UHGV virus genome: UHGV-1366640
Source: a virus
Length of the DNA stretch: 64,000 bases
Strand: one strand, 5' to 3'
In this document: positions 29,068 through 63,392 of the stretch, in pieces
How positions within the stretch are numbered: the first letter of the stretch is position 1
How the letters are laid out: each line of letters begins with the position of its first letter
The notes under the pieces: generated by a model
Seen by the model: only the letters and a program-made list of their open reading frames with translations
Databases searched by the model: none
Told to the model about the DNA's origin: nothing
Made by a program: the position numbers and the translations under genes

Positions 29068-29074
29068 ATAGAAG

Positions 29075-34462: not shown

Positions 34463-34467
34463 ACGGT

Positions 34468-34586: not shown

Positions 34587-34623
34587 CACAGACTTTTAGA
34601 GATTCTTAAGATCTGTATAGATT

Positions 34624-34680: not shown

Positions 34681-34710
34681 ATTTATTAAGATAAAGGAGA
34701 GTGATTTTAA

Positions 34711-37932: not shown

Positions 37933-37952
37933 GGACAGAGAGGTGATAACTT

Positions 37953-40395: not shown

Positions 40396-40422
40396 TCTCC
40401 ATGAGAAAGGAGTGATTTTCAA

Positions 40423-40980: not shown

Positions 40981-40998
40981 GAAGGAGGTGCTGCAAAG

Positions 40999-43002: not shown

Positions 43003-43016
43003 ATGGAGGTAGATCT

Positions 43017-43451
43017 ATGGTATATACAGATTCAAATTTTGATATAGAAGTTGCAAAAGCAATGTATGACAAACTACAAGCTCAGGCAGAAGCTGGTACA
43101 TTATATATGACTTTTGGAGTTGGATCATCCAGTTGGGACACACTTGACCCTGATTCTCCTCCGAAGGACTCAGATCATTCAGAATTTAAGAGAGTAAAAG
43201 TTGCAAAATCAAACATCTATTATGTGGCTTCTCCTTCAGACTCTGAACCATCTTCTCAACCAACAAAATATATTCAGGTTCTTGGTATTATTACAGCAGA
43301 AGATTCAGCCTTGGTAATCAGAGAAGAGACATTAAGGATTGATGCTTCTTCAACTCCATCTTCTGGTGCTGTGCTCTTGGCTTGTAGACATGGAGCGGTT
43401 AATCTTGCTCTGTCAAATGAATATCTTAAATATTTAACATTTTCTATATAA
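43017..43451 (+). CDS. hypothetical (fibre-associated)
   Basis: 144-aa ORF. Confidence 0.35.
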   Translation: MVYTDSNFDIEVAKAMYDKLQAQAEAGTLYMTFGVGSSSWDTLDPDSPPKDSDHSEFKRVKVAKSNIYYVASPSDSEPSSQPTKYIQVLGIITAEDSALVIREETLRIDASSTPSSGAVLLACRHGAVNLALSNEYLKYLTFSI

Positions 43452-43463
43452 GGAGGATTTTCA

Positions 43464-43988
43464 ATGAATAGTAATATTGGATGGACTACAAAGGAATTCA
43501 AAATCAACAAATATGATTCTGAACACAATTTGGTAGATACATATATCTCTCATGGAAATACAATAACATCAAATGGTCTGTTTCTAATTTGGAATCTTGT
43601 TATGGGGAACTCACAGGCAAGACCTCTCACAGCATCAAATGTCTATATTGGAATTGGTACTCAAGCAGATTCTGATTTATATAAGAATGCTTCATATAAG
43701 AAGGCAGATTCTGTTGCGATGTTAAGTTCTGCTGGTATTTCTTCAACGACAAATCCGGATAATGGTCAATTGAAGATCACAGCTACATTTGGTTCAAATG
43801 ATGCAGTTGGAGATTGGAATAGTTGGGGTATCTTCAATGGAGACCCGACTTCTCAGACAGCAGATCCTACCTCAGTTGGAGATGTTATTCTCATCAACAG
43901 AAAGAGCCAAGCAATGGGCGCAAAAGGATTGAATGCAACATGGGAAGTAGAAATCACTTTGTCTCTTTCTAATGTAACAACTGTATAA
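43464..43988 (+). CDS. hypothetical (fibre-associated)
   Basis: 174-aa ORF after SD AAGGAGGA. Confidence 0.35.
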   Translation: MNSNIGWTTKEFKINKYDSEHNLVDTYISHGNTITSNGLFLIWNLVMGNSQARPLTASNVYIGIGTQADSDLYKNASYKKADSVAMLSSAGISSTTNPDNGQLKITATFGSNDAVGDWNSWGIFNGDPTSQTADPTSVGDVILINRKSQAMGAKGLNATWEVEITLSLSNVTTV

Positions 43989-44013
43989 TTTTCTTTCACA
44001 AGGAGATGATGTT

Positions 44014-45432
44014 TTGAGCACAAAGAACATTTTGCAACAAGCAAAATCTCAATATACAGGATCAAAATCCATATTTAATGATAAGGATGTCTATTCAGCA
44101 CTTGATACAACAGCTGTGACTCAATTGGGAAATGTATCTCTTGACGAATCTCAGAATTTTGTAAATATCTTAATGAGCTTCTTTTCAAACTCTGTAACAG
44201 ATTCCGAAAAACAATATCCGTTATGTATTCCGTTTGGATCAACTGAAGGCGATCCATCTATTATGTCAAGATCTGCTGCTAAACCTCCTGTTCTTATAGA
44301 AGGAGAATCCTCTGATGAAATCTCAGGATTTGACATGAGCTCAAGGATTCGTACTAATACAATTGAAGGAGATTCATATAAGTATAACGATTTTTCTATT
44401 AAGATGGTTTGCCCGAGAGACAATGTTTATATTGAAAACAAAACAACTGGTCAAGATTTCTCTGATCATGTAATGAGAATTTCCTTGGGTAGTGGATCAT
44501 CATTAGATAGATCAAATCCAGAGTTCTATTCTTATTCAACAACAAGATATAATCTTCTCATAGGAGCTTTTTCTGTACAAAATGATTGTCCAGTCTTAGG
44601 AAAACATCTTCTTACATATTTTAATAAGAGATTCCAATCTGGTACAGTAATTGGTACAGGTCAGCTGATTCATCTTGATGATGATAGTCCATTCTTAGAT
44701 TATATTCTCAAGACAGGAAAGAAGATCAGAGATGTTTTAACGAATGATCATTTATTTCAAATTAGCACAAGTCCGACACAACAGCCAGCCTTGGTTGGTG
44801 TTTGCAAGGATTCGGATGATGTAATTTGGTTTGAATACATTGATCCATCTACACTAACGGGGGATTCTATTGAATTTAACCGAATGAAGCCTGTTTCGAA
44901 TGTCAGTGGATCTCAGCAATATACTCTTGCACATCAGTATCGAATGGATTCTGGTTATGAAACTGTATATGATGGCATAAGTTTGAATTTCTTCTTACCT
45001 ATATTTAATTTTGGAATGACCTATCCCACTCCTCTTCCAAAATCAATTCTTTCATATAATGATTCAGCTGAATATGAAGCTTTTTGGTCTTATGAAATTC
45101 CAACCAGTTCTTCATATACGAATTGGCTGTCAGAATTTCAGAATCAAAAGATTAAGTCTATTGCTTTACAAATTCAGCCAGCATCTGGTTCAAGTACATC
45201 TGGTTTTGAAATGTTCTATGCAGGAGATTATGATGTAAAGTACGATACAGATAAGAATCAAATAGATCTTGTTTTTCCACTACAGTTGGTTGCAGGAGAT
45301 CAAATTGTTGCTTTTCAGATTACATTCAATAATGATGATGATGTAGAAATAGTTGAAGTGGATTGGACTGCTGGAACAGGAGTTAAATCTGTGAAGTGGT
45401 CATTGAACTTGTTTCCAGTGACAGGAGGTTGA
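44014..45432 (+). CDS. tail fibre / receptor-binding candidate
   Basis: 472 aa, TTG start after SD AAGGAGATGA. Confidence 0.35.
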   Translation: MSTKNILQQAKSQYTGSKSIFNDKDVYSALDTTAVTQLGNVSLDESQNFVNILMSFFSNSVTDSEKQYPLCIPFGSTEGDPSIMSRSAAKPPVLIEGESSDEISGFDMSSRIRTNTIEGDSYKYNDFSIKMVCPRDNVYIENKTTGQDFSDHVMRISLGSGSSLDRSNPEFYSYSTTRYNLLIGAFSVQNDCPVLGKHLLTYFNKRFQSGTVIGTGQLIHLDDDSPFLDYILKTGKKIRDVLTNDHLFQISTSPTQQPALVGVCKDSDDVIWFEYIDPSTLTGDSIEFNRMKPVSNVSGSQQYTLAHQYRMDSGYETVYDGISLNFFLPIFNFGMTYPTPLPKSILSYNDSAEYEAFWSYEIPTSSSYTNWLSEFQNQKIKSIALQIQPASGSSTSGFEMFYAGDYDVKYDTDKNQIDLVFPLQLVAGDQIVAFQITFNNDDDVEIVEVDWTAGTGVKSVKWSLNLFPVTGG

Positions 45433-45539
45433 TTTTATGCAGTTTTTCACAGGAGAAGAAATTAATCTCATACAGGATATTATCATTATTGATTCAAATT
45501 CTTTTGAAGATATCTTTCTTGTAGAGGAGGTCCAAATCA

Positions 45540-45908
45540 ATGACATCAGCGAATAAATCAGAATTATATCCAGTAACAATAAAGATCGTGCCAAATACGG
45601 ATCTTAAATCTTCAGATTTTAAGATTGTCGTAGATCCAAATGCAAGTCAAGCAGACCTTAATGATGTTTCCACAGTAGAAGTCTACAATACACGAGGAGG
45701 TCGACTTATGAATCAATCTCCTAATTGTTTTGTAGATAATGATAATTTGATTCTTGGATTTCTTTGGGATACAACAGAGGATATCTATAGTGTGCAGGAA
45801 TATTATCTTTTCATGTTCAATGCAGTCATTGAATATCAAGGAACATTATTTAGAGTTCATAAGACTGTTACGATATTTCTCAAACCAAATGATGTTTTAA
45901 TTATGTAG
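45540..45908 (+). CDS. hypothetical protein
   Basis: 122 aa, no transmembrane segment. Confidence 0.35.
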   Translation: MTSANKSELYPVTIKIVPNTDLKSSDFKIVVDPNASQADLNDVSTVEVYNTRGGRLMNQSPNCFVDNDNLILGFLWDTTEDIYSVQEYYLFMFNAVIEYQGTLFRVHKTVTIFLKPNDVLIM

Positions 45909-45927
45909 AAAGGAGGTGAGTATCTTA

Positions 45928-46752
45928 ATGAAGGACGTATCTAAAATTACAACAAAAGTTGCAACAACGACATCTTTTCCACCATCAATCTCTCAAAATC
46001 TTACATCAGTAAATTTTACAGAGATGAAATACAAGATCAATAAATATATTGTTATTCATTATACAGCGAATAATGGAGATACAGCAAAGGGAAATACAGA
46101 TTATTTTAAGTCAAAAGACCGAGGTAGCAGTGCTAATTATTTCGTTGACGAGTACTCCCCAATTTGGCAATGCGTTGAAGATAGCCAGATGAGTTGGGCA
46201 GTTGGTGATGGTGGTAGTCATCCAAAGATACCATGTTATAATTACAATTCAATCAATATTGAACTTTGTAGTAGAATTGATTCAAATGGGAATTATTACT
46301 TCATGCAGAGGACAATAGAGAATGCTGCATGGTTAACATTGAAATTAATGAATAAATATGGAATTCCCTTAAAAAATGTTGTTAGACATTATGATGTTTC
46401 TGGCAAACTCTGTCCAAGACCATTTTTGTCAGATTCTGCTTGGAATGCGTTCAAAGATCTTATTATATCTTTTGGGAAGAATGGAGATGAATTAACAGTG
46501 ACACAGTATGAAGAACTGAAAAATAAAATTGAGGAGCAAAACAAGGAACTTGATGAACTCAAACGAAAGTTGGCTACTTATCAGTACATAGATGATAATT
46601 CTGCCAAGATTTCACCTGATGCGAATGAAGCTCTTAGTGCAGCAGTCAAAGCTGGAATTCTTGCATATTCAAATGAGGGTTTTGTTCCAGGTCTTACAAA
46701 AGACATGATCCGTATGATCATCTATATGTATCGTCTTGGATTCATAAAATAA
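45928..46752 (+). CDS. endolysin, N-acetylmuramoyl-L-alanine amidase (amidase_2/PGRP-type)
   Basis: IVIHYTANNG ... NYFVDEY ... RHYDVSGKLCPRPF (His/His/Cys Zn ligands). C-terminal coiled coil plus binding-like domain. ATG 45928 after AGGAGGTGAG. Confidence 0.6.
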   Translation: MKDVSKITTKVATTTSFPPSISQNLTSVNFTEMKYKINKYIVIHYTANNGDTAKGNTDYFKSKDRGSSANYFVDEYSPIWQCVEDSQMSWAVGDGGSHPKIPCYNYNSINIELCSRIDSNGNYYFMQRTIENAAWLTLKLMNKYGIPLKNVVRHYDVSGKLCPRPFLSDSAWNAFKDLIISFGKNGDELTVTQYEELKNKIEEQNKELDELKRKLATYQYIDDNSAKISPDANEALSAAVKAGILAYSNEGFVPGLTKDMIRMIIYMYRLGFIK

Positions 46753-46808
46753 CGAAAAGTTAGCAAAACGGCGAAAAACGGCGTATTTATGCGATATATT
46801 TAGAAAAC

Positions 46809-46853
46809 AATAGCTGATTTACCTTAGATTAGGGTAGATCAGCTATTTTAAGG
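46809..46853 (+). terminator. hairpin AATAGCTGAT...ATCAGCTATT followed by TTTTAAGG
   Basis: 10-bp perfect stem, 19-nt loop, T-run; sits after the endolysin gene. Confidence 0.45.
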
Positions 46854-46864
46854 TTTTATCAAAC

Positions 46865-46893
46865 TTTACATTTGACTCTAAAAGTAGTATAAT
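46865..46893 (+). promoter_or_regulatory. sigma-A type promoter TTTACA-N17-TATAAT
   Basis: Counted by hand: -35 TTTACA 46865-46870, 17-nt spacer, -10 TATAAT 46888-46893. Lies upstream of the sigma-factor gene. Confidence 0.5.
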
Positions 46894-46963
46894 AGTATTG
46901 TAAGTTAAGGGTACTCAAAACCCTTCAAAAATATTATTTTAGAGATCGAAAGGAATTTGAATT

Positions 46964-47608
46964 ATGAACATTTCATTTGAGAACATGGTAAATGTACTTG
47001 AGGATGCAAGAAAATCAGACAAGCTGTTAGAAAACTATGAAATATCAAAGTATGATAACATCTTAAGAGGTGTTGCTAAGAAATACGGAAAAACATTTTG
47101 TTGTGATGAAGATGAAATTTATTCTGAACTTTGTTTGAAGATCCTGAAGCTTGGTCGTGCCAATGGTTGGGAAAATCTTAATTCTAATTTGGTAGCGAAA
47201 ATCGCTTATAATCGTGCAGTAGATATTTATCGTAAAAATCGAAGAGAGTGGGATAGAAATCATACAGTATCTTCTATAGATGAAGTTGATCCTAATTCAA
47301 TTAATTCTTCACTCTATTCCAAACTCGGTAATTCATCAGAAGCTGATATCTCAGTTCTGTGTTCACAAATACTTGAAAGATATCCTCGTGGTTCAAGAGA
47401 GGAAATGTATCTTATAATCAAGCTTGTAGATAATGGAGTTCTCCCTGAGTCTGTTGCAGTTGCTCGAGGTATTCAAATGCCTGAAAAGGTTACAAATGAA
47501 TCTATAGCTCGATTGATGGGGTTCAAATCAAAAGCTCCTGCATCATTCTGTGGAATGATACATAACTTGAGAAATGAACTGTATGAAATGATGTACAAAG
47601 AAGTCTAA
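46964..47608 (+). CDS. phage-encoded ECF-like sigma factor
   Basis: Region 2-like LVAKIAYNRAVDIYRKNRRE (ECF consensus L..IA.N.a.D.lR..rr); C-terminal HTH-like ESIARLMGF...NLRNEL. Confidence 0.5.
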   Translation: MNISFENMVNVLEDARKSDKLLENYEISKYDNILRGVAKKYGKTFCCDEDEIYSELCLKILKLGRANGWENLNSNLVAKIAYNRAVDIYRKNRREWDRNHTVSSIDEVDPNSINSSLYSKLGNSSEADISVLCSQILERYPRGSREEMYLIIKLVDNGVLPESVAVARGIQMPEKVTNESIARLMGFKSKAPASFCGMIHNLRNELYEMMYKEV

Positions 47609-47643
47609 TAAATTATCTTATTTGAAAGGATTTAGTGATCATT

Positions 47644-47883
47644 ATGAAATTAATATTAAAAATTGTTACATTCATCAGTTTTCTTATTCTTATTGGCAGA
47701 GGTGGATATGCTGATCTTGGTTTGTCTAATACAGCTCATCTCATTGGTACTCTTAAAATTATTTTCATTCTCATAGGATGTCTTATTGGTCTCTTTATGA
47801 TCCATGTTAAGGAACTTCATCGTAAAGAACAGCGTGAAAGAGATACAGCTGTACTTGAAGCTTGGATCAAGTCATTTCAATAA
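47644..47883 (+). CDS. holin candidate
   Basis: ~80 aa, two hydrophobic helices and a highly charged C-terminus (KELHRKEQRERD). Confidence 0.4.
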   Translation: MKLILKIVTFISFLILIGRGGYADLGLSNTAHLIGTLKIIFILIGCLIGLFMIHVKELHRKEQRERDTAVLEAWIKSFQ

Positions 47884-47895
47884 AATTCTTAGTAA

Positions 47896-47930
47896 AGAGT
47901 TCTCCATTTCGGAGAGCTCTTTTACTTTAT
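47896..47930 (+). terminator. rho-independent terminator AGAGTTCTCC-ATTTC-GGAGAGCTCT-TTTT
   Basis: 9/10 bp stem followed by a T-tract. Confidence 0.5.
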
Positions 47931-47937
47931 AAAACTT

Positions 47938-48056
47938 ATGAGACCTCTCAAGACCTCTTCTCGAGCGTTCAGCGACTCTCAGATTAAAGAAAGACCCTCA
48001 GGTAGTATAAGTATACCTTTTAGTCACTTTTTAGTTTACAGCGCTTCTGAGAGCCT
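47938..48056. repeat. structured intergenic repeat, copy C (degenerate)
   Basis: Homologous to copy B across ~115 nt: GACCTCTTCTCG ... CAGATTAAAGAA ... GGTAGTATAAGTATACC ... CTTCTGAGAGC. Stem complementarity is partly lost. Confidence 0.6.
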
Positions 48057-48165
48057 TCTGCTGATCTACCATCAAATTCAGAAGATTCTAAGAGTGATCT
48101 CCACCATCACAGAAAATATTTTCATAAAATTTTTATAAATTTTTGGAGTCGTCCTGAGAATCTCA

Positions 48166-48183
48166 GCGTTTATATTTGGGGAA
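48166..48183 (+). promoter_or_regulatory. GCGTTTATATTTGG promoter-like motif upstream of the topoisomerase operon
   Basis: Matches the -10-like half of the recurring motif. Confidence 0.35.
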
Positions 48184-48290
48184 GGGGTAAAGGACTATCA
48201 TCCCGCAGCTGAAACAGTTGAAACAATGAAGAGTTGAAACAAACAAAACAAACAGCAAACAATGAAGAAAGGAGATCAGTAGAAAACAAA

Positions 48291-51200
48291 ATGTCAAACA
48301 AAACAAACAATGAAGAATATACAGTTGATTCAATTCAGGTACTTGATGACATTCAACACATCAGATTGAGAAAGGGAATGTACATAGGAGAAACATATGA
48401 TCCTCATCATCTCTTTTCAGAAGCATTTGATAATGCAATAGATGAAGCTCAATCTGGAAACAGTGATCTTACAATTATTAAGAAATTCAAAGATGAGAAC
48501 GGAAAATTACATTATTATGTGAGAGATCATGGTAGAGGAATTCCTATTGGCAAGATTCTCTATGGAGAGAAAGAAGTGGAAGCTCTTCAGATTCTCTTTA
48601 CAAAATGTAATTCAGGAGCGAAGTTCAGTTCTGACAATTATAGAATCTGTTCTGGAACTCATGGAGTTGGTGGTGTCTGTATCTGTGCTCTCTCAGAATG
48701 GATGAGAGTAACAACAATCAGAGATCACAGATCTGTTTCATTGGTCACAGAATTTGGAGAAGTAAAAGATCTCGTTTATTCAGATACAGATGAAGAAAAT
48801 GGAGTTGAAATTGAGTTCATACCAGATCCTTCTGAATTTGAATCTTCTGAGATCCCAGATTCCTTTATCATTGACAGATGTGAAGTTGCTCAGGCAATGG
48901 GATATCCAGTAGATCTTTTTATCAATGATAAGAAGATTGAAATTAAGATAAATTCTCTCTTGGATTTAATACATCTTCAACCAGATGTCACGGAATACTG
49001 TTCAGATGTGATCAAAGTCAAAGATGAATCAACAGGAGAATCTTTCATTGTAGGATTCAAATATACATCAGATACAAAATACAGAATCAATGGATATACG
49101 AATCTCCTTTATAATTCATATGGAGGAACTCATACAAGATGTACAATAGATGCTGTCACACAAGCTTGGTCAAAATATACAGAGGAGAGATCTCTTGTAT
49201 GGGATGATTGTCTTCTTGGAATGAAGATTGTTGTAGCAGCATTTATAGATAATATTGCTTTTTCATCACAGACGAAAGATAAGTTGACTGTGCCGAAATC
49301 TCAATTGAAAACATTGACAGATCTTCTCTCACTCAAATTTGAAGAGTGGATAGAGTCACATAAAGATCTCTGTACAAAATTGCTTGATAGATTTTCAGAG
49401 TATCGAGCAGCTCAAAGAAAATTGGAATCTCAAAAGGAGATTATGAATGTTGTACAGATCTCAAAGAAAGATAAGAGTGGTCGTCTTCGCAGAGGAAGTT
49501 CTGTTGTGTCATCGTTGATTGATTGTACTTCTCCTTCAAAAGAGGATACTGAGTTGTATATCTGTTTGGCAGGAGATACGAAAATCAAAATGCTCGATGG
49601 TACTTCTCCGACATTAGAAGAATTGACTGAAAGATATAAGGATCCTGATGAGGAATTTTGGGTGTATTCTTGTGATGATTCTGGAGAGTTCATTCCTGCA
49701 AAGGCTCATAATCCTCGACTGACAAGATATGTAGATGAGTTGTATGAGATTTCTCTGTCAGATGGTACAATTGTGAAATGTACAGGAAATCATAAATTTA
49801 TGAATAGAGAAACGATGGACTGGATAAGAACAGATGAAATGACAGTTGGTACATCATTACATCATCTAAGTTTTGGAAAAACTGCAGATGGTAGATGTAC
49901 GGTTTTTGTGAATAAAGATTCTTCATATAAAGAAGAGCCTGTTTACCGAATTATTGGTAATCTATTCTATAAAGAAGAGCATGATAGACTATTTAATAGA
50001 TTTCGGAGAACTGGCGATGTATTAGATCGTCCTCAGCTTCATCATAAGAATTGCAACAAATTTGATGATCGTCCTGAGAATATAGAATGTATTACTCAAC
50101 GAGAGCATTGGGATGGGTACAGGCACGGATCGTTAAGTAGCCAAAGGATTACTGATTACAATAGATCAGATTCTCATAAAAGAGATATGAAAATTGCATG
50201 GAGCAATCCTGAATTACGAAAAAGGATGTCAGTTGGAGGAAAGCATACTGATCTTTCTAAGCAGAAATTACATGATCTTGCAGTAGATCCGAATTCTCGG
50301 GTATGTGCAAAAACATGGTCAGAGACTTACAATAACTCTGAGAAACATCATATTGACTTAATTACAAGATTTGAAAGATTTCCGAATCTAAAAGAGAAGT
50401 ATTCTCAAAGAACTTCCGAGATGAATAAGAACCCTCAGATTAAGAGAAATCAGATGAGAGGAAGAATTGGTAAAATAATGAGAGCACTATTTGATAGAGG
50501 ATTGGAATTTTCTGAAGAGTCCTGGAATTTGGTAAATTCTCAGCTTCATCATTCAAGTGTTAAGTACTCAACAATTCTAAAATATTTTGATTCTTACGAA
50601 GAAGCATGTAAATTTGGTCAGAATTGGAATTATAAAGTTGTTTCTATCAAACGAATTTCCTCTCCTCATACTCCTGTATATTGTATGACAGTAGATTCGA
50701 CTCACAGATTTGCTTTAGAGAACGGACTTATCAGCAAAAATTGTGAGGGGTTGTCGGCTTCGGGTTCTATAGCAAGACCTCGCAATAAGGAATTTCAGGC
50801 AGTTCTTCCTCTTCGTGGAAAGATAAAGAATATTGCAGGATATTCTCTCAAAGATGCTTTGAAGTTTGAAACAGTTGCGAATATTGTTAATTCAATTGGA
50901 TGTGGTATCGGAGAATCAGCTGATCCAGAGAAGTCAAGATATGAGAAGATTATTATCTCTGCCGACAAGGATTCAGATGGATCGCATATAGTAGCTCTTG
51001 TTCTTACAGCAATTGTGAATCTCCTTCCATCAATCGTCAAGGCAGGAATGGTTTATATCTTAGATGCTCCTTTCTATAAGTATTGGACAAAAGATGGAAA
51101 ACATCACTATACAAGTGATTTCAATGAGGTTCCTCAGTGGAGTTTTGATAATCACAAGTTTCTCAGATTCAAGGGTCTTGGTTCTATGGATGATTCAGAC

Positions 51201-51386
51201 TTCAAAGATGCTTGTCTGAATGCTGAGAATAGAGTTTTATTTCAAGTTGAATATCCTGATGATCTTGAGAGATTCAATCATCTTGCTGGTACATCTGCTG
51301 GTAGGAATGAATTGTTATCACACTATGGTGTCATAAGATCAATATCAGATTTAGAAGAGGATGAATCTGTAGATGAAGACTCCTAA
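48291..51386 (+). CDS. type II topoisomerase large (GyrB/gp39-like ATPase+TOPRIM) subunit, containing an intein
   Basis: ATPase motif GTHGVGGVCICALSEW. TOPRIM extein ...TELYI|(intein)|CEGLSASGS...EFQAVLPLRGKIKNI matches GyrB ELYLVEGDSAGGS...KFQAILPLRGKILNV. ATG 48291 is the likely start; the track gives TTG 48234. Confidence 0.7.
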   Translation: MSNKTNNEEYTVDSIQVLDDIQHIRLRKGMYIGETYDPHHLFSEAFDNAIDEAQSGNSDLTIIKKFKDENGKLHYYVRDHGRGIPIGKILYGEKEVEALQILFTKCNSGAKFSSDNYRICSGTHGVGGVCICALSEWMRVTTIRDHRSVSLVTEFGEVKDLVYSDTDEENGVEIEFIPDPSEFESSEIPDSFIIDRCEVAQAMGYPVDLFINDKKIEIKINSLLDLIHLQPDVTEYCSDVIKVKDESTGESFIVGFKYTSDTKYRINGYTNLLYNSYGGTHTRCTIDAVTQAWSKYTEERSLVWDDCLLGMKIVVAAFIDNIAFSSQTKDKLTVPKSQLKTLTDLLSLKFEEWIESHKDLCTKLLDRFSEYRAAQRKLESQKEIMNVVQISKKDKSGRLRRGSSVVSSLIDCTSPSKEDTELYICLAGDTKIKMLDGTSPTLEELTERYKDPDEEFWVYSCDDSGEFIPAKAHNPRLTRYVDELYEISLSDGTIVKCTGNHKFMNRETMDWIRTDEMTVGTSLHHLSFGKTADGRCTVFVNKDSSYKEEPVYRIIGNLFYKEEHDRLFNRFRRTGDVLDRPQLHHKNCNKFDDRPENIECITQREHWDGYRHGSLSSQRITDYNRSDSHKRDMKIAWSNPELRKRMSVGGKHTDLSKQKLHDLAVDPNSRVCAKTWSETYNNSEKHHIDLITRFERFPNLKEKYSQRTSEMNKNPQIKRNQMRGRIGKIMRALFDRGLEFSEESWNLVNSQLHHSSVKYSTILKYFDSYEEACKFGQNWNYKVVSIKRISSPHTPVYCMTVDSTHRFALENGLISKNCEGLSASGSIARPRNKEFQAVLPLRGKIKNIAGYSLKDALKFETVANIVNSIGCGIGESADPEKSRYEKIIISADKDSDGSHIVALVLTAIVNLLPSIVKAGMVYILDAPFYKYWTKDGKHHYTSDFNEVPQWSFDNHKFLRFKGLGSMDDSDFKDACLNAENRVLFQVEYPDDLERFNHLAGTSAGRNELLSHYGVIRSISDLEEDESVDEDS
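49563..50741 (+). other. intein (393 aa) with HNH endonuclease domain
   Basis: N-terminal CLAGDTKIKMLDG (Hint block A), internal HNH LHHKNCNKFDDRPENIECITQREH, C-terminal VYCMTVDSTHRFALENGLISKN followed by +1 Cys. Removing it restores a colinear GyrB TOPRIM motif. Confidence 0.7.
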
Positions 51387-51723
51387 TTTTCATTATGGTC
51401 AAGTATGGCTCGTTCAGGATCAATCAAAAATTAGGCATGGTTCAATTCAACAGAAGATGAGACCGATGATCATAATTTCCAATGAGAAGAATAACATTTA
51501 TTCACCGATACTCAATGTTATTCCTCTCACTGGTTCAAGAGATCTTCCTCGAGGATCATATCAAATTCAATATTATCTTGGACTTCGTCAAACTCCAATT
51601 ACTGTATTGTGTGAACAGATTACGACGATCAGCAAAGAGGACTGTGTCAGATATCTTTATACATTGAGTGACGATATCTTGACAGAAGTTCAAAGGGCAT
51701 TAAGGATCCAATTATCTCTATAG
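51373..51723 (+). CDS. MazF/PemK (Kid)-family toxin-like protein, no adjacent antitoxin
   Basis: GQVWLVQDQSK..HGSIQQKMRPMIIIS...PILNVIPLTG and VLCEQITTISKEDC align by eye with Kid/PemK (GEIWLVSLDPTAGHEQQGTRPVLIVT...VVPVTSG; VRCDQPRTIDMKAR). Overlaps the topoisomerase stop by 14 nt. Confidence 0.5.
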   Translation: MKTPNFHYGQVWLVQDQSKIRHGSIQQKMRPMIIISNEKNNIYSPILNVIPLTGSRDLPRGSYQIQYYLGLRQTPITVLCEQITTISKEDCVRYLYTLSDDILTEVQRALRIQLSL

Positions 51724-51742
51724 AGAGGAGTTTTATTAAGAA

Positions 51743-52801
51743 ATGCAGAATCGACGAAATGATATACCATATCTTGGGTGCAACAATATTGAGGGCATTA
51801 AGAATCCAAAAGATCCTGGAATATTGCAAGATAGATTAGAAATTTTATACCATTTTATCACAGAAAGATATAAGATTTGGTTAAGAAGAAATGCTGGTCA
51901 AAAGAGACCTTGGACTGATGATGAAATTCTTAGAGATTTCAGTTTTACGAATATCCGAAGAGAACAAGACAGGACAAGTCGCTGGCTGATAGAGCATATT
52001 TCGGAGAATGATGATCTATCAATTGCTGAGAAATTTTGGCAGACCATTATTTTTAGATTATATAATAAGATAGAGACAGCTGAATTGTTCAAACTTGGTT
52101 CGGGTTTTGACTGGGATTTTGAGAGAATTGAAGAAGCAAGATCTAAATCTGACATGAGATATTTATTTACAACAGCGTACTTTACATCAGGTTGCAGAGC
52201 AGCTTGGAATAGGAGATATCCAGATATTTCAAGATCATCACATCTTTCTACTCTTAAAGGAATCATTGATTATAGAAACGATTTTGATTATTCTGGTTTT
52301 GATTCTCCTATTAGATACCTTGATGACAAATACTACTGGAATGAAGATCTTCATGCAGATGATGTTGTTAATTGGCTTCTCAAAATTCCAGGATGTAAGT
52401 GGTTTATGGCTTATCAGTTATTCGTAGATCTTACATACATTCCATCTTTTCCAATTTCTGAGAATGAATATGTTGTTGCTGGTTCAGGATGCAGAACTGG
52501 TATCTGGTATTTGACTGAAACTTCAAAGTGGAAAGAAAATATGGTAGGAGATCTTAAATACTGGGAGTTTCTCTTTTGGTTAAGAGATCATCTTGAAGAT
52601 CTCTTCAGAGAGAGAGTTGATCCTAATTTCTCCTGTGATAAATTGTTTATAGATCTTCCATCAGAAGAAAGACATTTTAATGTTATGAGTCTTGAAAATG
52701 TCTTCTGTGAATTTTCAAAGTACATGAAATTGAAAGAAATGAAAGAAACAGGAAAGAAATGTCGAATAAGAAAATATTATGGTTCTGAGAGTATTCTATA
52801 A
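51743..52801 (+). CDS. hypothetical protein (352 aa) within the topoisomerase cluster
   Basis: Conserved-looking block KRPWTDDEILRDFSFTNIRREQDRTSRWL; no family assigned with confidence. Confidence 0.4.
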   Translation: MQNRRNDIPYLGCNNIEGIKNPKDPGILQDRLEILYHFITERYKIWLRRNAGQKRPWTDDEILRDFSFTNIRREQDRTSRWLIEHISENDDLSIAEKFWQTIIFRLYNKIETAELFKLGSGFDWDFERIEEARSKSDMRYLFTTAYFTSGCRAAWNRRYPDISRSSHLSTLKGIIDYRNDFDYSGFDSPIRYLDDKYYWNEDLHADDVVNWLLKIPGCKWFMAYQLFVDLTYIPSFPISENEYVVAGSGCRTGIWYLTETSKWKENMVGDLKYWEFLFWLRDHLEDLFRERVDPNFSCDKLFIDLPSEERHFNVMSLENVFCEFSKYMKLKEMKETGKKCRIRKYYGSESIL

Positions 52802-52826
52802 ATTTAGAGCGTTTATATTTGTGTAA
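52786..52826 (+). promoter_or_regulatory. bipartite promoter-like motif TGAGAGTA-N15-GCGTTTATATTTGTGTAA
   Basis: Hand alignment with the sites at 56965, 59111 and 62190. Confidence 0.45.
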
Positions 52827-52849
52827 TGAATCGTTAGGAGTTGATGTAA

Positions 52850-53200
52850 ATGCTGCAAGATTATAATACTGAACAGGAGAATCTCAAAATTGTTTCAAAG
52901 GATGATTTACACATTGGAGATCTTTGTAAGTATGCGTATTCAAGGACAGGCTCAGTCAAATGGCTGTATGGGAGAATTTTTGAAATCTATCCGAGATTTG
53001 TAAGAGTGAATCTCGAATCATATACAGATACTTTGAATTTTGATGCAAAGGGATTTCTAAGATCTGCTGGTACAGATTTTATAAAATTGGTTGAAATTGT
53101 CTCAAATGAAACAGGAGCTGTGCTTTATTCCGATTATGAACATAAAGATCATTTTCGATTAATTGATTTGCATGAGGAGGATAAGAATGCAGAATCCTAA
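52850..53200 (+). CDS. hypothetical protein
   Basis: 116-aa ORF. Confidence 0.35.
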   Translation: MLQDYNTEQENLKIVSKDDLHIGDLCKYAYSRTGSVKWLYGRIFEIYPRFVRVNLESYTDTLNFDAKGFLRSAGTDFIKLVEIVSNETGAVLYSDYEHKDHFRLIDLHEEDKNAES

Positions 53201-55046
53201 ATTGAAAGATTCAAATGAGATAATTGCAGAATCTTATGTTGAAATTGCAAAATATGTTGCAAAGACTCGAGCTTATTGTTCAATGATTGATGGCTTCAAA
53301 ACCGTATATCGTAGGATGCTCTTTGCTTCAAAAGATATCAAGGGAAAGAATAAGGCAACAGAATTTATTGCGAGAACGATGAAATATCATCCACATGGAG
53401 AAGCATCAGATGTTCTTGTATCAATGACTTGCCAATATGGAAGACTTCCTTTGTATAAGGGATATGGAAATTTTGGCGGATGTGGGTTTGGAGCAGCAAA
53501 TCCAAGATATCTTTCTGCAGAATTGAATGAGATTGCTAAATTGATGTATTTAGATCTGGTCGATTATGCAGATTATATGGAAGGTGATGCTGGTGAAATG
53601 GAACCTGAGTATCTTCCTTCTCTTATTCCATATGCTTTAATAACAGGATCTTTTGGCATGACTGTTGGGCTTCCTACCCCGGAGATTCCGTCTTTTAATC
53701 TCATGGATCTTATAGATTTCTTCAAAAAGAAACTTCTTGGAGAGACAATAAATCATTATCCAAGAATAGATGTGGGAGATGCTTATATTCTCCAGGATGA
53801 GAAAGATTTGTCTCCTCTGTACAAAGATGGTTGGCAGAGAGTTGAATTTCAAACATTGTATGATTTTACGAATGACACAATGTCAATAAGAGATTTTCCT
53901 CCTGGATGTCGTCATTGGAAATTTCACAGTAAGAAGTTACAGTCACTCATTGATCAAGATCTACTTGAGTATACAGATTCTACTGATGAATCTGGCGTCT
54001 GTTATGAATATAAGATTCTTAATCCTTCAAAATTCTCAATTGATGACTTGAAGTCTCTTGCTAAGAACTGGGTGAAATCTGTGCAAACATATAGATTATA
54101 TTTTGAACATTATTCATCTGTATATTTATCTTCACTGGACAAGATTGCAGAAGAGTCTTTGAAATATCTTAGGAAATGTGCAATACGAAAATTTGAAGCT
54201 GATATAAAATCTCAGTCATTCAAGATTTCTCTATTTCAAGCAATTGAGAAATTGAAGTCTTCCAAAGAAATCAAACAGATTTCTAAAAAGAGTACAGATT
54301 ATTTCAAGTCGCTCATACAGGAATGGGGATTTAGTGAAGAAGTTGCGAATTCCGTTATGACAAAATCTATTTCCTACTTAACAAATTCACATGATAAGGA
54401 ATATGAATCCCTTCTTAAAACATATGAGTACTCTTGTAAAATGTCAAAGGATCCTACTGAGTATTTATCACAGAAGTATGATGAGTTGAAGAGTCTCGTG
54501 GTTGATCTTTATAATTCAAGGAAGCATTCTGTATATAAATCTGAAGTCACAGATTTGTCAGATCTTGGTTTCTATTTCGATGAAAAATCTTCTGATATTG
54601 TTTTTGGAGTGAAAAGTAAGAAATTCAAGGATTTTGGTTCTTCCATTATTGTTGTATATCCTGACAATACAGGATATATTCAGTCAGTATCTTCTGCAAG
54701 ACCAAATTCTCGAATTCATATTCCTGTTAATTCGTCAGGATTGAAAGCAAGATGTTGTATAGGATGTTTTGATAACTCTAAATATCTTATAGTTCAAAAT
54801 TATAGAGATAGAATTTCAGTTATTCCTATTGAGAAGATGCAGTATACAGAAACAAAATTGTGCAAATCTTGGGATGAAGATTCGTTTGTAACAGCAGTAG
54901 TTACTTCGTTAGAAGATGTTAAATTTATTTCTCAGAAGGGAAGAGAATATACAGCTCACTGTGAAGATTTTGTCAGATCAAGGATTTCTTATGCTGATAG
55001 AATTTTCTCAAGAGGAAATGAGATTTCAAAAATAGAATATCTATAA
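53187..55046 (+). CDS. type II topoisomerase GyrA/gp52-like subunit
   Basis: HPHGEASDVLVSMTCQYGRLPLYKGYGNFGG resembles GyrA HPHGDSAVYDTIVRMAQ...GQGNFGS. ATG 53187 after TGAGGAGG. Confidence 0.6.
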   Translation: MQNPKLKDSNEIIAESYVEIAKYVAKTRAYCSMIDGFKTVYRRMLFASKDIKGKNKATEFIARTMKYHPHGEASDVLVSMTCQYGRLPLYKGYGNFGGCGFGAANPRYLSAELNEIAKLMYLDLVDYADYMEGDAGEMEPEYLPSLIPYALITGSFGMTVGLPTPEIPSFNLMDLIDFFKKKLLGETINHYPRIDVGDAYILQDEKDLSPLYKDGWQRVEFQTLYDFTNDTMSIRDFPPGCRHWKFHSKKLQSLIDQDLLEYTDSTDESGVCYEYKILNPSKFSIDDLKSLAKNWVKSVQTYRLYFEHYSSVYLSSLDKIAEESLKYLRKCAIRKFEADIKSQSFKISLFQAIEKLKSSKEIKQISKKSTDYFKSLIQEWGFSEEVANSVMTKSISYLTNSHDKEYESLLKTYEYSCKMSKDPTEYLSQKYDELKSLVVDLYNSRKHSVYKSEVTDLSDLGFYFDEKSSDIVFGVKSKKFKDFGSSIIVVYPDNTGYIQSVSSARPNSRIHIPVNSSGLKARCCIGCFDNSKYLIVQNYRDRISVIPIEKMQYTETKLCKSWDEDSFVTAVVTSLEDVKFISQKGREYTAHCEDFVRSRISYADRIFSRGNEISKIEYL

Positions 55047-55058
55047 GGAGGAAGATTA

Positions 55059-55583
55059 ATGGTACTCCATATGTCATTTCCTGACCTTAAATTGGTCAGT
55101 ACAAATGATGCGTACATACCAACAGCTGGTTCTGTAAAAGCTGGACATAAGAGAAGATCAGCATTTCTTAGGAGATCTAATGAACTTATAGAATTTCAAA
55201 GAGAATTCATTCGAAGGATAATGTCATTCTACAGTGAAGAACTTCAAAAATTCAAAGATACTTGTTCTCATGATTTTGAAAGACTTGGTTTTCAATTGCG
55301 ACTTGCAATTGGAATGCCTGATATGAATTATAAGCGAAAATCTATATCATACGATATTCGTCCATATGATGTTTCAAATTATATTAAAACAGTGGAAGAT
55401 GTTATTTCAAGGGCTTTGGAAGTTGATGATCGATACAATATGGAAGTTCACATTATGAAGTACAAGCTCCTGGATGTAGATGAAGAATTTAAGTCACGGG
55501 ATCATTGGAAACTTGATGTTGAAATTATTCCTGTAAATTATGAGACTTACACTAAGAATACTCTATTTGTGGGGGATGATTAA
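55059..55583 (+). CDS. RusA-like Holliday junction resolvase
   Basis: YDVSNYIKTVEDVISRALEVDDRYNMEVH matches the RusA acidic catalytic motif (DxDNxxK...DD). Confidence 0.5.
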   Translation: MVLHMSFPDLKLVSTNDAYIPTAGSVKAGHKRRSAFLRRSNELIEFQREFIRRIMSFYSEELQKFKDTCSHDFERLGFQLRLAIGMPDMNYKRKSISYDIRPYDVSNYIKTVEDVISRALEVDDRYNMEVHIMKYKLLDVDEEFKSRDHWKLDVEIIPVNYETYTKNTLFVGDD

Positions 55584-55584
55584 G

Positions 55585-55941
55585 ATGGATTCTATTCGAC
55601 ATACAATTTCTACATCTGATATTGTAACAGAAATTTTACATGAAAATACTCTTAAAATTGATAAGTCTCTTGCAATACGGCTGTTAGCATTATATACACA
55701 TAAAAAGGCACAGCATCTTCTCGAAGGAGACATCATTTCAGAATATTATCTTGGAAAAACAGAAATCTCTTTAAGAAGAGTGAATACTAAGAACATGTCA
55801 GAACCCTCTCTTTCTGCAAAAGGTGTTATTCGTCTTTCTCCAGATAATTATTATAAAATAATTGATAAAGCAAAAAATAATGAAGAATTCTGTTCAAAGA
55901 TTTCTTCAAGAAATACTAATTTAAAGAAAGGATCAATTTAG
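55585..55941 (+). CDS. hypothetical protein
   Basis: ATG 55585 directly after the RusA stop with a GGGGATGA SD-like sequence. Confidence 0.35.
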   Translation: MDSIRHTISTSDIVTEILHENTLKIDKSLAIRLLALYTHKKAQHLLEGDIISEYYLGKTEISLRRVNTKNMSEPSLSAKGVIRLSPDNYYKIIDKAKNNEEFCSKISSRNTNLKKGSI

Positions 55942-55943
55942 TT

Positions 55944-56960
55944 ATGTTCAAATCAAAAAGTTTAGAAAGTTTGCGTTACATAACATCAGAGATTGTAAAC
56001 ATTGAAGGAGAAGATTACGAATTCAGAGATTCTTCAGTCAAAAACCTGATTGCTTATCCTTGTTCTCTTGGATCTTCAAGATTTGTAAAGAAGTTGTACG
56101 ATTTAAATTCCGAAATTTTTATAGAATTTACAAAGAAGCAGCTTGCTTTAGAGAAATCTTCTATGTTTCTTAAGACTCATTTTGCAATAGTAGACGAGAA
56201 TGCTCATCTTATTTTGTCAGTATCACAAGATGAAACTTGTATAAATCACTATGGAGATTGTTTGAATAAATTATATAAGATAGCAGAAGAAGAATATTCT
56301 ACTGAAATTTGTTGTGAAGAGAAATTTACTGATTCTTGTATAACAACATTTGTTTATCCAGAATTTACAGATTGTGGTATTGAGTATGGAATTGTTTTCA
56401 GATATTATCTTAATTCAAATTATCTTTGTGCTAATAATTATCTTAAAGAGGAAGGACATGTTTATATCAATCCAATTTCAATAATTGAACAGACATTGGA
56501 AGATGAATCTATTGAGATATTGATATCGCCTGATGTTCTTAAGATTTATTTGGATCCTTCTGAGAGTGGATATAACATTATTAAGATATCATATAAGTCT
56601 TTTAGAAATCAGGATAAAATTAGATTATCAGTGCAGGAACTTTACATGATATCAAAGAATACATTTGGATTTAAGATTAAAGAGTCTTCTGAGATTGAAG
56701 ATACACCAAGAGATTCTCTTCTTTCCGGTAAGATATATCCAAAGTGGCTTAAGATGTTTTCAGAGATTATGAATCAACTGTATCTTATACTTTCAAAGAA
56801 TTATCTCAAGTCATCAATATCATTGACATCTGTGACAGTTTTTGATGTTTATGAAATGATATCGATAGCATTTGTTGAAAATGATATATCTATTGAAGAT
56901 CTTATACATTTCTTGTATGATGTCACTACGAATAAATTAAATTATTTTCAAATTCAGTAG
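55944..56960 (+). CDS. hypothetical protein (replication-module)
   Basis: 338-aa ORF. Confidence 0.4.
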   Translation: MFKSKSLESLRYITSEIVNIEGEDYEFRDSSVKNLIAYPCSLGSSRFVKKLYDLNSEIFIEFTKKQLALEKSSMFLKTHFAIVDENAHLILSVSQDETCINHYGDCLNKLYKIAEEEYSTEICCEEKFTDSCITTFVYPEFTDCGIEYGIVFRYYLNSNYLCANNYLKEEGHVYINPISIIEQTLEDESIEILISPDVLKIYLDPSESGYNIIKISYKSFRNQDKIRLSVQELYMISKNTFGFKIKESSEIEDTPRDSLLSGKIYPKWLKMFSEIMNQLYLILSKNYLKSSISLTSVTVFDVYEMISIAFVENDISIEDLIHFLYDVTTNKLNYFQIQ

Positions 56961-56964
56961 AATT

Positions 56965-57005
56965 TGAGAGTTTTCAAAATCTTTTTAGCGTTTATACTTG
57001 TGTAA
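56965..57005 (+). promoter_or_regulatory. bipartite promoter-like motif TGAGAGTT-N15-GCGTTTATACTTGTGTAA
   Basis: Hand alignment. Confidence 0.45.
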
Positions 57006-57052
57006 GAAAGGTTAGTTTCCAAATTTTATTAATGTTAAGGAGATTTTGTAAG

Positions 57053-57592
57053 ATGGTTGCAAGTCAGAAAGAAAAATACAATTCAATAATTTCTTTTTTG
57101 AAAGAAAGAGCAGAACAGGATCAACAGGAAGTTGAAAATCATTCTGAAGAAGTCACAAGGCTTGATGCATATGATTCACAGATGCTTTTGTCTCTCTACA
57201 TTAAATTATTTGAGCTTGAACAGTGGGATGATAGGTTTTCAGAGAATTATTGCTTTAAAGATCGTATAATCAAAATTAATCGATATATAGATAAGTTGAC
57301 TCTTCTGAAGGAGAAACCTGAGCTGATTACGATTTGCGGATTATTTATGGAAACAGAAGTTTGTTTGATACCAATGAGATTTGTAAAATTCATTGGTACC
57401 GGAAATAATCGTACAGCTCTACTTCCCGTTGATCCTGTTTCTGTTGGTTTGCCTTCACATGATGAAGTTGCATATAACACTTTTCGTGAATGTACTGGAA
57501 CTTATGGTGTTTGTTTGAGTAAGAGAAAAAATAGTTGGTTACATGATTTTGTTAAAACATCAAAATCCTGGGAATATGTAAGGGTTGATTAA
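57053..57592 (+). CDS. hypothetical protein
   Basis: ATG 57053 after AAGGAG. Confidence 0.35.
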   Translation: MVASQKEKYNSIISFLKERAEQDQQEVENHSEEVTRLDAYDSQMLLSLYIKLFELEQWDDRFSENYCFKDRIIKINRYIDKLTLLKEKPELITICGLFMETEVCLIPMRFVKFIGTGNNRTALLPVDPVSVGLPSHDEVAYNTFRECTGTYGVCLSKRKNSWLHDFVKTSKSWEYVRVD

Positions 57593-57595
57593 TTA

Positions 57596-59113
57596 ATGAT
57601 ACAATTTGTTAATGGGAATAAAATAAAGATACCAAGAGATTATTCATCTATAGCATTAATAAAATACCGACTCACAAGAGTAGATCGCAGAACAGATCAA
57701 GTACAATGTGCGTATACACGAGATAAGAAGACAGAAGATATTTTCATTCATCGGGGAATGTTAAATATTTTCTTAAAGATGGGATTGATTAGATCCGAAG
57801 ATATTGATTGGATTTCAGATAAGAATAATCTTTGGAATTTTTCTAAACCATGCTATCCAGAAGACTTCTGGGACACGCTTCTTCCAAATATTAAGTTAAG
57901 ACCTGAACAGATTCTTGCTATTGTAAGATGTCTTGAATCCAAAAGAGGGTTGATTCAAGCAGCAACTGGAATGGGTAAGAGTATAATTATTTGTGCTCTT
58001 GTGAAGGCACTTGAGAGAATATTGGGAGAACTTCCGCCAATTTTGATTCTTGTACCAACAAGATATCTCGTTGAAGATATGGTTTCAAAAATGAACGGAT
58101 TTGGAATTCCAGCAGTTGATTATGCCGATTGTAGAGGAGATGTTTCTGGGGTTGTAGTCTGTCATCCAAAATCTATTTGTAACGATCTTGATTGTGAAAA
58201 GATAGATCTATCTGATGTTAAAATAATTATCAGTGATGAAGCTCATCATCTTCAATCACAAACATTCAGTCGAGTTTTTGAAGCTGCTGAAAATTCTGAA
58301 ATTGTTCTTGGGTTTTCAGCTTCAATGATAGATTCCTTTAAGTTACCAATTGAAACACATCTTGATAGATTAACAATTGATGAATTAAGAATGGTTTCTG
58401 TTACAGGGCAGATTTTATTAAATGTTCCAACTTCCTTTTACGCAGATGGAGATGTTCTTGCAAAATCTTGTGTTATTAGAATTTACCACAAGATAGAGGA
58501 GCCAGTAGATGATTTAAGAAATTGGCATCAATTGAGATCTATCCAATTAGAATCACAGGCTCGAACTCTTAAGATGGCACAAGTTGCAGCAATATTTTCA
58601 AAATTTGGTCTTAAGACATTGATTCTTGTAAATACACATGATCATGGATATCGCCTTCTTAAGATGCTATCAGATTATGGTCTCCGAGAGATATCTGCAT
58701 GTTCTTATGGAAGTTCGAAATTCTATCAGTATGATGAAGAAGGAACTCTTGTTCAACTTCCAAAGGATTCTATGGAAAAATTCAAAACAGGAGAATTGAA
58801 AATCTTAATTGGATCAAGTCATATTTATGAAGGTGTTGATATTCCCAATCTCGATTCAGTCATTATGGGAGTTGTTGGGAAGAGCTCAAGGAGAATTATT
58901 CAGGGTGTTGGTCGTTCTTTAAGAAGAACAAAGAATGGTAAATTCGCTTATATTGTAGATTTTACAGACAATGACAACGGAATTCTTGGATATCATTCTT
59001 CAAAGAGATCTCATATTTATAAAGAGATTATTGGTGTTTCTGAAGAGAACTACAAAGATGGCGTTAAGATTTCAGAATTACAAGATCTTCTTATGAAAAT
59101 TGAGAAAAATTGA
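57596..59113 (+). CDS. SF2 DEAH-box helicase (UvsW/RecG-like)
   Basis: Walker A TGMGKS; motif II IISDEAHHL; motif VI-like GVGRSLRR. Confidence 0.55.
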   Translation: MIQFVNGNKIKIPRDYSSIALIKYRLTRVDRRTDQVQCAYTRDKKTEDIFIHRGMLNIFLKMGLIRSEDIDWISDKNNLWNFSKPCYPEDFWDTLLPNIKLRPEQILAIVRCLESKRGLIQAATGMGKSIIICALVKALERILGELPPILILVPTRYLVEDMVSKMNGFGIPAVDYADCRGDVSGVVVCHPKSICNDLDCEKIDLSDVKIIISDEAHHLQSQTFSRVFEAAENSEIVLGFSASMIDSFKLPIETHLDRLTIDELRMVSVTGQILLNVPTSFYADGDVLAKSCVIRIYHKIEEPVDDLRNWHQLRSIQLESQARTLKMAQVAAIFSKFGLKTLILVNTHDHGYRLLKMLSDYGLREISACSYGSSKFYQYDEEGTLVQLPKDSMEKFKTGELKILIGSSHIYEGVDIPNLDSVIMGVVGKSSRRIIQGVGRSLRRTKNGKFAYIVDFTDNDNGILGYHSSKRSHIYKEIIGVSEENYKDGVKISELQDLLMKIEKN

Positions 59114-59150
59114 GAGTTTTGTACTTGTTATGAGCATTTATATTGTTGAA
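59111..59150 (+). promoter_or_regulatory. bipartite promoter-like motif TGAGAGTT-N15-GCATTTATATTGTTGAA
   Basis: The TGA of the motif is the helicase stop codon. Confidence 0.4.
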
Positions 59151-59183
59151 TGAAATACTACGCATTAGAAGGGGATATTCATA

Positions 59184-61456: not shown

Positions 61457-61460
61457 GCTG

Positions 61461-62192: not shown

Positions 62193-62230
62193 GAGTTCTT
62201 TGAATAGATGTAGCGTTTATATTTATGTAA
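62190..62230 (+). promoter_or_regulatory. bipartite promoter-like motif TGAGAGTT-N15-GCGTTTATATTTATGTAA
   Basis: The TGA of the motif is the stop codon of the upstream gene. Confidence 0.45.
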
Positions 62231-62283
62231 GGAACCGTTGATGGTTCAGATAAAATTATTTAATTCTACTTGGAGGTTTTAGT

Positions 62284-63309: not shown

Positions 63310-63392
63310 GATGAATTTGATAATATTGAAGATAGCAAAAGAGTTCTTTAAGTCTGTTTGTTTTTATAAAATTAAATAGGGAGGAGACTTTA

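Follow-up and report, generated by a model that had tools for sequence, protein, structure and literature searches.

A MazF-family gene without a recognizable antitoxin directly downstream of gyrB in a phage genome

We analyzed a 64,000-nucleotide (nt) stretch of the virus genome UHGV-1366640, referred to below as the window, in which a short open reading frame (ORF) encoding a protein of the MazF/PemK toxin family lies directly behind the gene for a GyrB-like topoisomerase subunit. The gene, called mazF here, and its junction with gyrB have the following features.

51373..51723, + strand: MazF/PemK-family gene, 116 amino acids (aa), ATG start, MazF domain only.
51373..51386, + strand: 14-nt overlap between the gyrB stop and the mazF start, ATGAAGACTCCTAA, read from the sequence.
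51356..51361, + strand: Shine-Dalgarno (SD)-like AGAGGA, 11 nt before the MazF ATG, read from the sequence.

The ORF, its length, and its 14-nt overlap with the topoisomerase stop, as given in an initial annotation of this DNA, can be read directly from the sequence, the MazF ATG lying 11 nt before the TAA stop codon (51384..51386) of gyrB (48234..51386). Because an in-frame TAG (51370..51372) directly abuts the ATG on its 5′ side and because the N-terminal sequence FHYGQVWLV is kept in relatives, we take the annotated ATG to be the true start. The next gene downstream has an SD similar to that of mazF at about the same spacing. Upstream, only short, spurious ORFs inside gyrB were present (frame noise), in line with the earlier remark that no antitoxin-sized ORF precedes mazF.

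The same ~98.2-kb gut phage genome recurs in several samples (L018, L024, and L025). In L018 the gene (1524..1874) is identical to the window gene and is omitted from the stored gene calls, while the calls for the closest relative, L019, include it. Short overlapping genes such as mazF are easily lost from catalogs.

Profile searches bore out the assignment to the MazF/PemK family. The protein matched Pfam PF02452 (PemK_toxin) with a score of 60.5 bits (gathering cutoff, 23.1; E = 2.1e-16; profile positions 3 to 109 of 109) and PHROG 1936 ("MazF-like growth inhibitor") at 68 bits (E = 1.9e-18), the latter over profile positions 7 to 120 of 188 only, since the C-terminal part of that profile is absent from the window MazF. 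Both motifs quoted in the initial annotation are present, as R30-P31-x-x-I34-x-S36 and C80-x-Q82-x-x-T85-I86-x-K88. By sequence, the closest solved relatives are Staphylococcus aureus MazF (E of ~1e-8) and Bacillus subtilis EndoA/MazF. An AlphaFold2 (AF2) model built on 26 homologs had a predicted local distance difference test score (pLDDT) of 89.1 and a predicted template modeling score (pTM) of 0.81, and the top 50 Foldseek matches in the PDB were all MazF-type toxins, including MoxT (template modeling [TM] scores of 0.75 to 0.84; best E = 5.8e-10). The model and its structural matches show the SH3-like β-barrel and C-terminal helix expected of a MazF-type protein. NCBIfam gave no match for the window MazF, and the PADLOC-DB defense models gave none at an E value of ≤0.1 for MazF or its neighbors.

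Homologs were drawn from a search of 1.84 billion proteins, which returned 1547 matches at an E value of ≤1e-3, and the 152 nearest cluster representatives were used for residue comparisons. The two catalytic residues of the family are intact. R30 and T53 fall at the positions of catalytic Arg25 and Thr48 in B. subtilis MazF (R29 and T52 in Escherichia coli) and are invariant relative to characterized MazFs; among the nearest representatives, the Arg is kept in 149 of 152 and the Thr in 144 of 152. P31, N41, E81, and Q82 are also conserved as in active MazF RNases. The residue alignment included MazF of B. subtilis, S. aureus, and E. coli as well as Kid, and the PDB alignment is independent of it. 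Mutation of the Arg or the Thr severely reduced the activity of Bacillus cereus MazF and abolished the toxicity of B. subtilis MazF (PMC7354611).

All genes in the window lie on the + strand. Around mazF, the following features were identified.

47894..47922, + strand: terminator-like hairpin (12 pairs and a T-rich tail), 5′ of the topoisomerase/replication block.
48234..51386, + strand: GyrB-like type II topoisomerase large subunit, 1050 aa (Pfam DNA_gyraseB, Toprim, HATPase_c, Intein_splicing, and HNH_3).
49563..50741, + strand: 393-aa intein within gyrB, with an HNH-like endonuclease segment, delimited by alignment with the intein-less L002 homolog.
51743..52801, + strand: 5-hydroxymethyldeoxyuridine (5-hmdU) DNA kinase of thymidine hypermodification (PF18723 HMUDK_hel, 5e-53, 180.7 bits; PHROG 2396).
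52850..53200, + strand: orf116, 116 aa, without a Pfam, NCBIfam, or PADLOC match.
53187..55046, + strand: GyrA/ParC-like topoisomerase small subunit (PF00521, 1.1e-42), with its start placed according to the L018 and L019 gene calls.

The position of mazF is conserved. It lies directly after gyrB in four of the four loci that cover the junction (the window/L018, L019, L002, and L014), which represent three lineages, the orthologs P0002 (in L002) and P0003 (in L014) having 59% and 52% aa identity to the window protein. L019 has the order gyrB (with the intein), mazF, 5-hmdU kinase, orf116, gyrA, and L020, which starts inside mazF, continues in the same order as far as gyrA. The initial annotation had described mazF as translationally coupled to the topoisomerase gene. 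That description fits the window and L019, which keeps the overlap as ATGAAGAATCCTAA, but not the two more distant lineages, from which the overlap is absent: L002 has a 279-nt spacer without a credible ORF, and L014 has a 70-nt spacer with an AT-rich terminator-like hairpin and T-run and with a strong GGAGG SD of its own before mazF. The conserved feature is adjacency to gyrB, not translational coupling.

Beyond mazF, the interval between the two topoisomerase genes is variable. In the distant relatives L009 and L010, gyrA follows gyrB directly with nothing between; in L008 (45% GyrB identity), five unrelated genes occupy the interval (9910..14427); and in L002 a small membrane protein gene stands 3′ of mazF and the kinase is absent there. 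The interval is an insertion hotspot in which the window clade keeps mazF fixed just after gyrB. By eye, the five L008 genes encode RNase H-like, uracil-DNA-glycosylase-like, 604-aa, small Cys-rich, and DHH-phosphoesterase-like proteins. Between orf116 and gyrA there is likewise a 14-nt overlap of stop and start (ATGCAGAATCCTAA), and this junction (53187..53200) and that of gyrB and mazF (51373..51386) are identical at 12 of 14 positions in the window and at 13 of 14 in L019. The near-repeats could be the footprint of an insertion of the mazF-kinase-orf116 block into an ancestral overlapping gyrB/gyrA junction, or they could be a substrate for deletion.

A gene in such an interval might be a mere passenger that contributes nothing to the phage life cycle, a toxin remnant either acquired recently or in decay. 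The hotspot itself, the 14-nt repeat that flanks the block, and the omission of the ORF by one gene caller would all fit that picture. The pattern of substitution largely refutes it. Between the window and L019 (~92% identical DNA), 39 of 348 nt of mazF differ but only 3 aa do, which gives a dS of 0.67, a dN of 0.023, and a dN/dS of 0.034, stricter than that of gyrA in the same comparison (0.072); moreover, the ORF and its motifs are intact at the same place in lineages down to 52% identity. By these measures mazF is a live gene under strong purifying selection, and we consider a passenger role very unlikely indeed.

A first metagenome scan with MazF patterns returned no matches, and queries of IMG/VR with MazF, the kinase, GyrA, and GyrB returned only very distant topoisomerases and one spurious match, L001, which was rejected as a MazF relative since the match falls inside a 1688-aa reverse-strand gene. 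On short contigs encoding P0006, P0016, and P0009, the MazF neighbors are unannotated small phage-like ORFs only.

Upstream of the topoisomerase genes, the gene order runs through a structural block, an amidase endolysin (45916..46752), a weakly sigma-like protein, a small membrane protein, and the strong terminator-like hairpin at 47894..47922, where transcription of the lysis region probably ends. The replication block that follows encodes the topoisomerase II subunits, a RusA-like protein, a superfamily 2 (SF2) helicase, and a DnaB-like helicase, and genes for a RecA-like protein, a 5′-3′ exonuclease, and DNA polymerase A lie beyond the window. In a + strand scan, the gyrB-mazF junction, mazF itself, and its immediate surroundings were free of terminator-like sites; the next such sites fall within the kinase gene (52477) and within gyrA (53483). 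No integrase gene was present in the ~73 kb seen, and no partition genes were in view; by its gene content, the genome appears to be that of a lytic-type phage. Because no terminator-like site separates mazF from gyrB and no integrase was found, mazF very probably shares a transcript with the replication genes, in a phage of the lytic type. The earlier suggestion of coexpression with replication genes is in line with the shared orientation and the uninterrupted gyrB-mazF junction.

We searched for an antitoxin in ~73 kb of the ~98-kb genome. gyrB is upstream of mazF at every locus covering the junction, and with the 5-hmdU kinase gene downstream, the locus does not have the bicistronic arrangement of type II MazEF/PemIK systems. 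Pfam antitoxin families had no match at an E value of ≤1 in the mazF-flanking genes, in orf116, or in 10 further small ORFs of the window, and no adjacent MazE/AbrB, ribbon-helix-helix (RHH), or PemI antitoxin gene was found in the window, L002, or L014. For RNA antitoxins of type III or type I, no meaningful tandem array was seen near mazF, and Rfam had no match near mazF at an E value of ≤1 (one chance snoRNA match occurred elsewhere).

Three neighboring products were considered as neutralizers. The ~40-kDa neighbor, which the initial annotation had proposed to screen for neutralizing activity, proved to be the 5-hmdU DNA kinase (PF18723, 5e-53) and is absent beside MazF in L002. The acidic C-terminal tail of GyrB was rejected as a MazE-like mimic, since L014 has MazF without the tail and L008 has the tail without MazF. 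That left orf116, the only unassigned small gene within the gyrB-gyrA interval and the sole nearby candidate partner. Besides the databases named above, PHROGs gave no useful match for it; its homologs occur in close relatives only (72 to 100% identity), and its AF2 model is poor (pLDDT of 43.8). With no family matches, homologs confined to close relatives, and no evidence for such a role, orf116 was not accepted as an antitoxin. The search supports a mazF that is solitary within these limits; a novel or host-encoded neutralizer is possible.

The window MazF might nonetheless be the toxin of a genuine toxin-antitoxin (TA) pair whose antitoxin goes unrecognized. The partner could be a nonadjacent small protein (orf116, another ORF, or a gene in the remaining ~25 kb), a cross-neutralizing host MazE, or an unrelated protein, in the way that the transcription factor MrpC, encoded at a distance, neutralizes MazF-mx of Myxococcus xanthus. 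An acidic C terminus of orf116 and its presence alongside MazF in the window, L019, and L020 would suit such a split pair, as would the reach of the antitoxin search, which covered ~73 kb, so that a distant antitoxin is possible. MazF-mx, which is solitary with no adjacent antitoxin gene, provides a precedent (PMC2701414); it resembles the window mazF in this and differs in being chromosomal and developmental rather than phage borne. Conversely, neither orf116 nor the other small ORFs resemble an antitoxin family, the upstream gene is always gyrB, and tblastn found no orf116 homolog in L002, where the contig ends ~275 nt past mazF and the result excludes immediate adjacency only. Addiction, too, would serve little purpose in a phage genome of the lytic type in which neither integrase nor partition genes were in view. 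We regard a split pair as a plausible but rather unlikely explanation.

The explanation that we favor, and to which we give about an even chance of being right, is that mazF encodes a functional MazF-family protein, most probably a sequence-specific endoribonuclease, without a dedicated antitoxin, which is transcribed with replication and DNA modification genes and cuts host RNAs. In this scheme, mazF would be transcribed together with gyrB, the 5-hmdU kinase gene, orf116, gyrA, and the genes that follow, and the enzyme would be made in the replication phase. A phage that kills its host would have no need of an antitoxin for such an enzyme. Its targets would be RNAs of the host and perhaps also those of the phage itself or of a competitor phage, and the cutting would redirect translation and RNA turnover during infection in the manner of the T4 toxin-fold RNase RegB. 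The initial annotation had suggested host shut-off, superinfection exclusion, or counterdefense as possible roles.

Several observations weigh against this explanation. The first lies in the active site. The initial annotation had named loss of conserved catalytic residues as a refutation; the Arg and Thr are kept, and the substrate-recognition Glu is not: Ile25 occupies the Glu site of the G-S-E-Q loop (E24 in E. coli; E20 in B. subtilis and Desulforudis audaxviator). The Ala mutants E24A of the E. coli protein and E20A of the B. subtilis and D. audaxviator proteins lost cleavage activity (PMC8634880). With the catalytic pair in place and Ile instead of the substrate-recognition Glu, we consider RNase activity of the window MazF likely rather than assured; its cleavage specificity is possibly noncanonical, and activity or specificity may differ from those of characterized MazFs.

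The replacement is not a private lesion. The orthologs P0002 and P0003 have Val and Leu, respectively, at this site, and among the 152 nearest representatives Ile, Val, or Leu is found in 114 (75%) and Glu in 31. The replacement is a subfamily trait; Glu is not a universal family-defining residue, and its loss cautions against assuming canonical activity. A search of the genomes of 185,579 species found no cellular genome with a MazF relative above 36% identity. The matches were subfamily members in mobile elements of gut Lachnospiraceae and Oscillospiraceae, without an upstream MazE. The window MazF belongs to a large, mobile-element-linked subfamily that has lost the canonical Glu and typically comes without an antitoxin.

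Genes for Val/Ile-subfamily MazFs in these elements (L050 3944..4324; L027 3947..4318) adjoin a large serine recombinase or a tyrosine integrase and a helicase, and near-identical copies of these Lachnospiraceae and Oscillospiraceae genes occur in dozens of species. Many of the nearest homologs (P0004 to P0152) are 180 to 350 aa long, with a MazF domain at the N terminus followed by a low-complexity linker and then a C-terminal extension without a Pfam match; tandem MazF domains also occur, four in P0004 and two in P0010.

The second point against comes from the phage transcripts. A phage with a free interferase is expected to avoid its own cleavage site, and k-mers (k = 3 to 6) were counted in 59 + strand genes and compared with synonymous-codon shuffles. 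Neither ACA (1159 observed versus 1087 expected) nor UACAU (84 versus 74) was depleted, and the same held for UACA, ACAU, CUCCU, and UUCCU. UAC was mildly depleted (0.86), as were other TA-containing words, and no convincing strand-specific depleted motif emerged from the phage genes. CACC, the only word with a strong strand-asymmetric depletion (27 observed versus 84 expected), was rejected as a cleavage site; because the deficit falls in a single codon phase (NCA|CCN) and extends to CACT and CACG, we attribute it to codon-pair bias. The phage is not visibly shielded from canonical MazF specificity. The test is negative for canonical specificities only and uninformative for others. To these points may be added the ~25 kb beyond the antitoxin search, where a distant antitoxin could lie, and the literature, in which we found no experimental work on any of the phage MazF-like proteins.

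The Glu replacement also lends itself to another reading, in which the MazF fold has been repurposed, in the window protein and in its mobile-element-associated subfamily, for a noncanonical role linked to the topoisomerase or to DNA, either as a CcdB-like poison of the host gyrase to which the phage enzyme is immune or as a noncleaving RNA- or DNA-binding regulator. CcdB and MazF share a superfamily fold. In addition to the substitution in 114 of the 152 nearest representatives, this reading could draw on the retention of the post-gyrB position in three lineages while the rest of the gyrB-gyrA interval varies and on the subfamily members of gut Firmicute mobile elements, which likewise lack an upstream MazE. 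Set against it are R30 and T53 along with P31, N41, E81, and Q82, all kept as in active RNases, and the best sequence and structure matches, which are all MazF RNases: CcdB gave no Pfam match at an E value of ≤1 and was not among the top 50 PDB fold matches. CcdB, the gyrase poison of the F plasmid, shares with the window MazF the fold and the topoisomerase theme but neither the Pfam family nor the RNase residues. That two genes are neighbors says little by itself about whether their products interact physically. Repurposing of the fold seems improbable to us. Lower still do we place a functional partnership behind the gyrB-mazF pairing, whether through CcdB-like poisoning of the host gyrase while the phage enzyme takes over or through MazF-mediated RNA processing that sets how much the two topoisomerase subunit genes yield relative to each other.

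Returning to the favored RNase without a dedicated antitoxin, we compared the window MazF with known systems. The Firmicute MazF/EndoA toxins (S. aureus, PDB 4MZM; B. subtilis, PDB 4MDX) belong to the same Pfam family and have the same fold, length, and single domain. Identity is 34% to S. aureus MazF and 27% to B. subtilis MazF (25 to 35% in fold alignments), and the catalytic pair (Arg and Thr) is kept together with the P, N, and EQ motif positions. In contrast to these toxins, the window MazF has Ile for Glu and, in its clade, the loop RGSYQIQ in place of LPTHV, and its gene sits in a phage replication operon rather than in a two-gene autoregulated one, without an upstream MazE/AbrB or RHH antitoxin.

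The phage MazF-domain proteins of PHROG 1936/35650, such as Lactobacillus phage LpeD gp090, Thomasclavelia phage TR-TP1 gp119, and Lactobacillus phage ATCC 8014-B2 gp086, are closer in setting: like the window gene, they are often encoded in an early or replication region and have no annotated antitoxin. In LpeD (virulent, Herelleviridae), the MazF-like gene adjoins a helicase gene and there is no annotated MazE. Many members of these groups have a C-terminal extension of 70 to 200 aa that the window MazF lacks, and the conserved post-topoisomerase position is specific to the window clade. We found 68 GenBank phage records with annotated MazF-like genes, at ≤37% identity to the window MazF. 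RegB of T4 is an antitoxin-less RNase with a toxin fold (RelE/YoeB-like) that acts early in a virulent phage and inactivates specific mRNAs. The comparison with RegB is a functional analogy only, as RegB belongs to a different (RelE-like) fold family without sequence relationship to the window MazF; the RegB/RelE relationship is mentioned in PMC2701414.

Phage-borne MazF is already a recognized annotation class (PHROG 1936/35650), of which the window gene is a further member; as a protein, it belongs to PF02452. Noteworthy are its fixed place beside a topoisomerase gene across the clade, the strength of purifying selection, and a replacement of Glu that extends over the subfamily. Phage MazF-like genes are widespread and are routinely labeled "growth inhibitor / host takeover"; they were reported in the gut viromes of 75% of individuals (PMC12291355). 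The window MazF offers a clean test case, combining a single domain, the catalytic pair, strong selection, and a fixed position in the replication operon of a lytic-type phage with hypermodified DNA, with no antitoxin found. An RNase that works without an antitoxin in the turnover of host or phage RNA, if it proves to be one, would give MazF a role outside toxin-antitoxin biology; if the Ile/Val/Leu subfamily has a new specificity or no RNase activity, a widespread annotation would be corrected.

Some further features of the region were recorded. The GyrB intein is inserted at the Toprim E-G-x-S-A motif; it is absent from L002 and L008 and present in L019, and the length of the L014 homolog (621 aa) suggests its absence there as well. 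The 214-aa protein encoded 3′ of the endolysin gene (46964..47608) has a weak NCBIfam match to SigX (E = 1.3e-4) that falls well short of the cutoff. Possibly the phage encodes a sigma factor of its own here, which, if so, would hint at a Firmicute host; a gut Firmicute is suspected as the host. The 5-hmdU kinase belongs to a thymidine hypermodification set in the ~98-kb genome, with DUF1599, thymidylate-synthase-like, and dCMP-deaminase/TAGT genes located downstream (L024 17788..21026). Short palindromes are nearly absent from the window (1..64000), with counts of 0 for CTAG (59 to 90 expected), 2 for ACGT (65 to 88 expected), and 0 for GGCC (15 expected), a scarcity that looks like restriction-site avoidance despite the thymidine hypermodification pathway.

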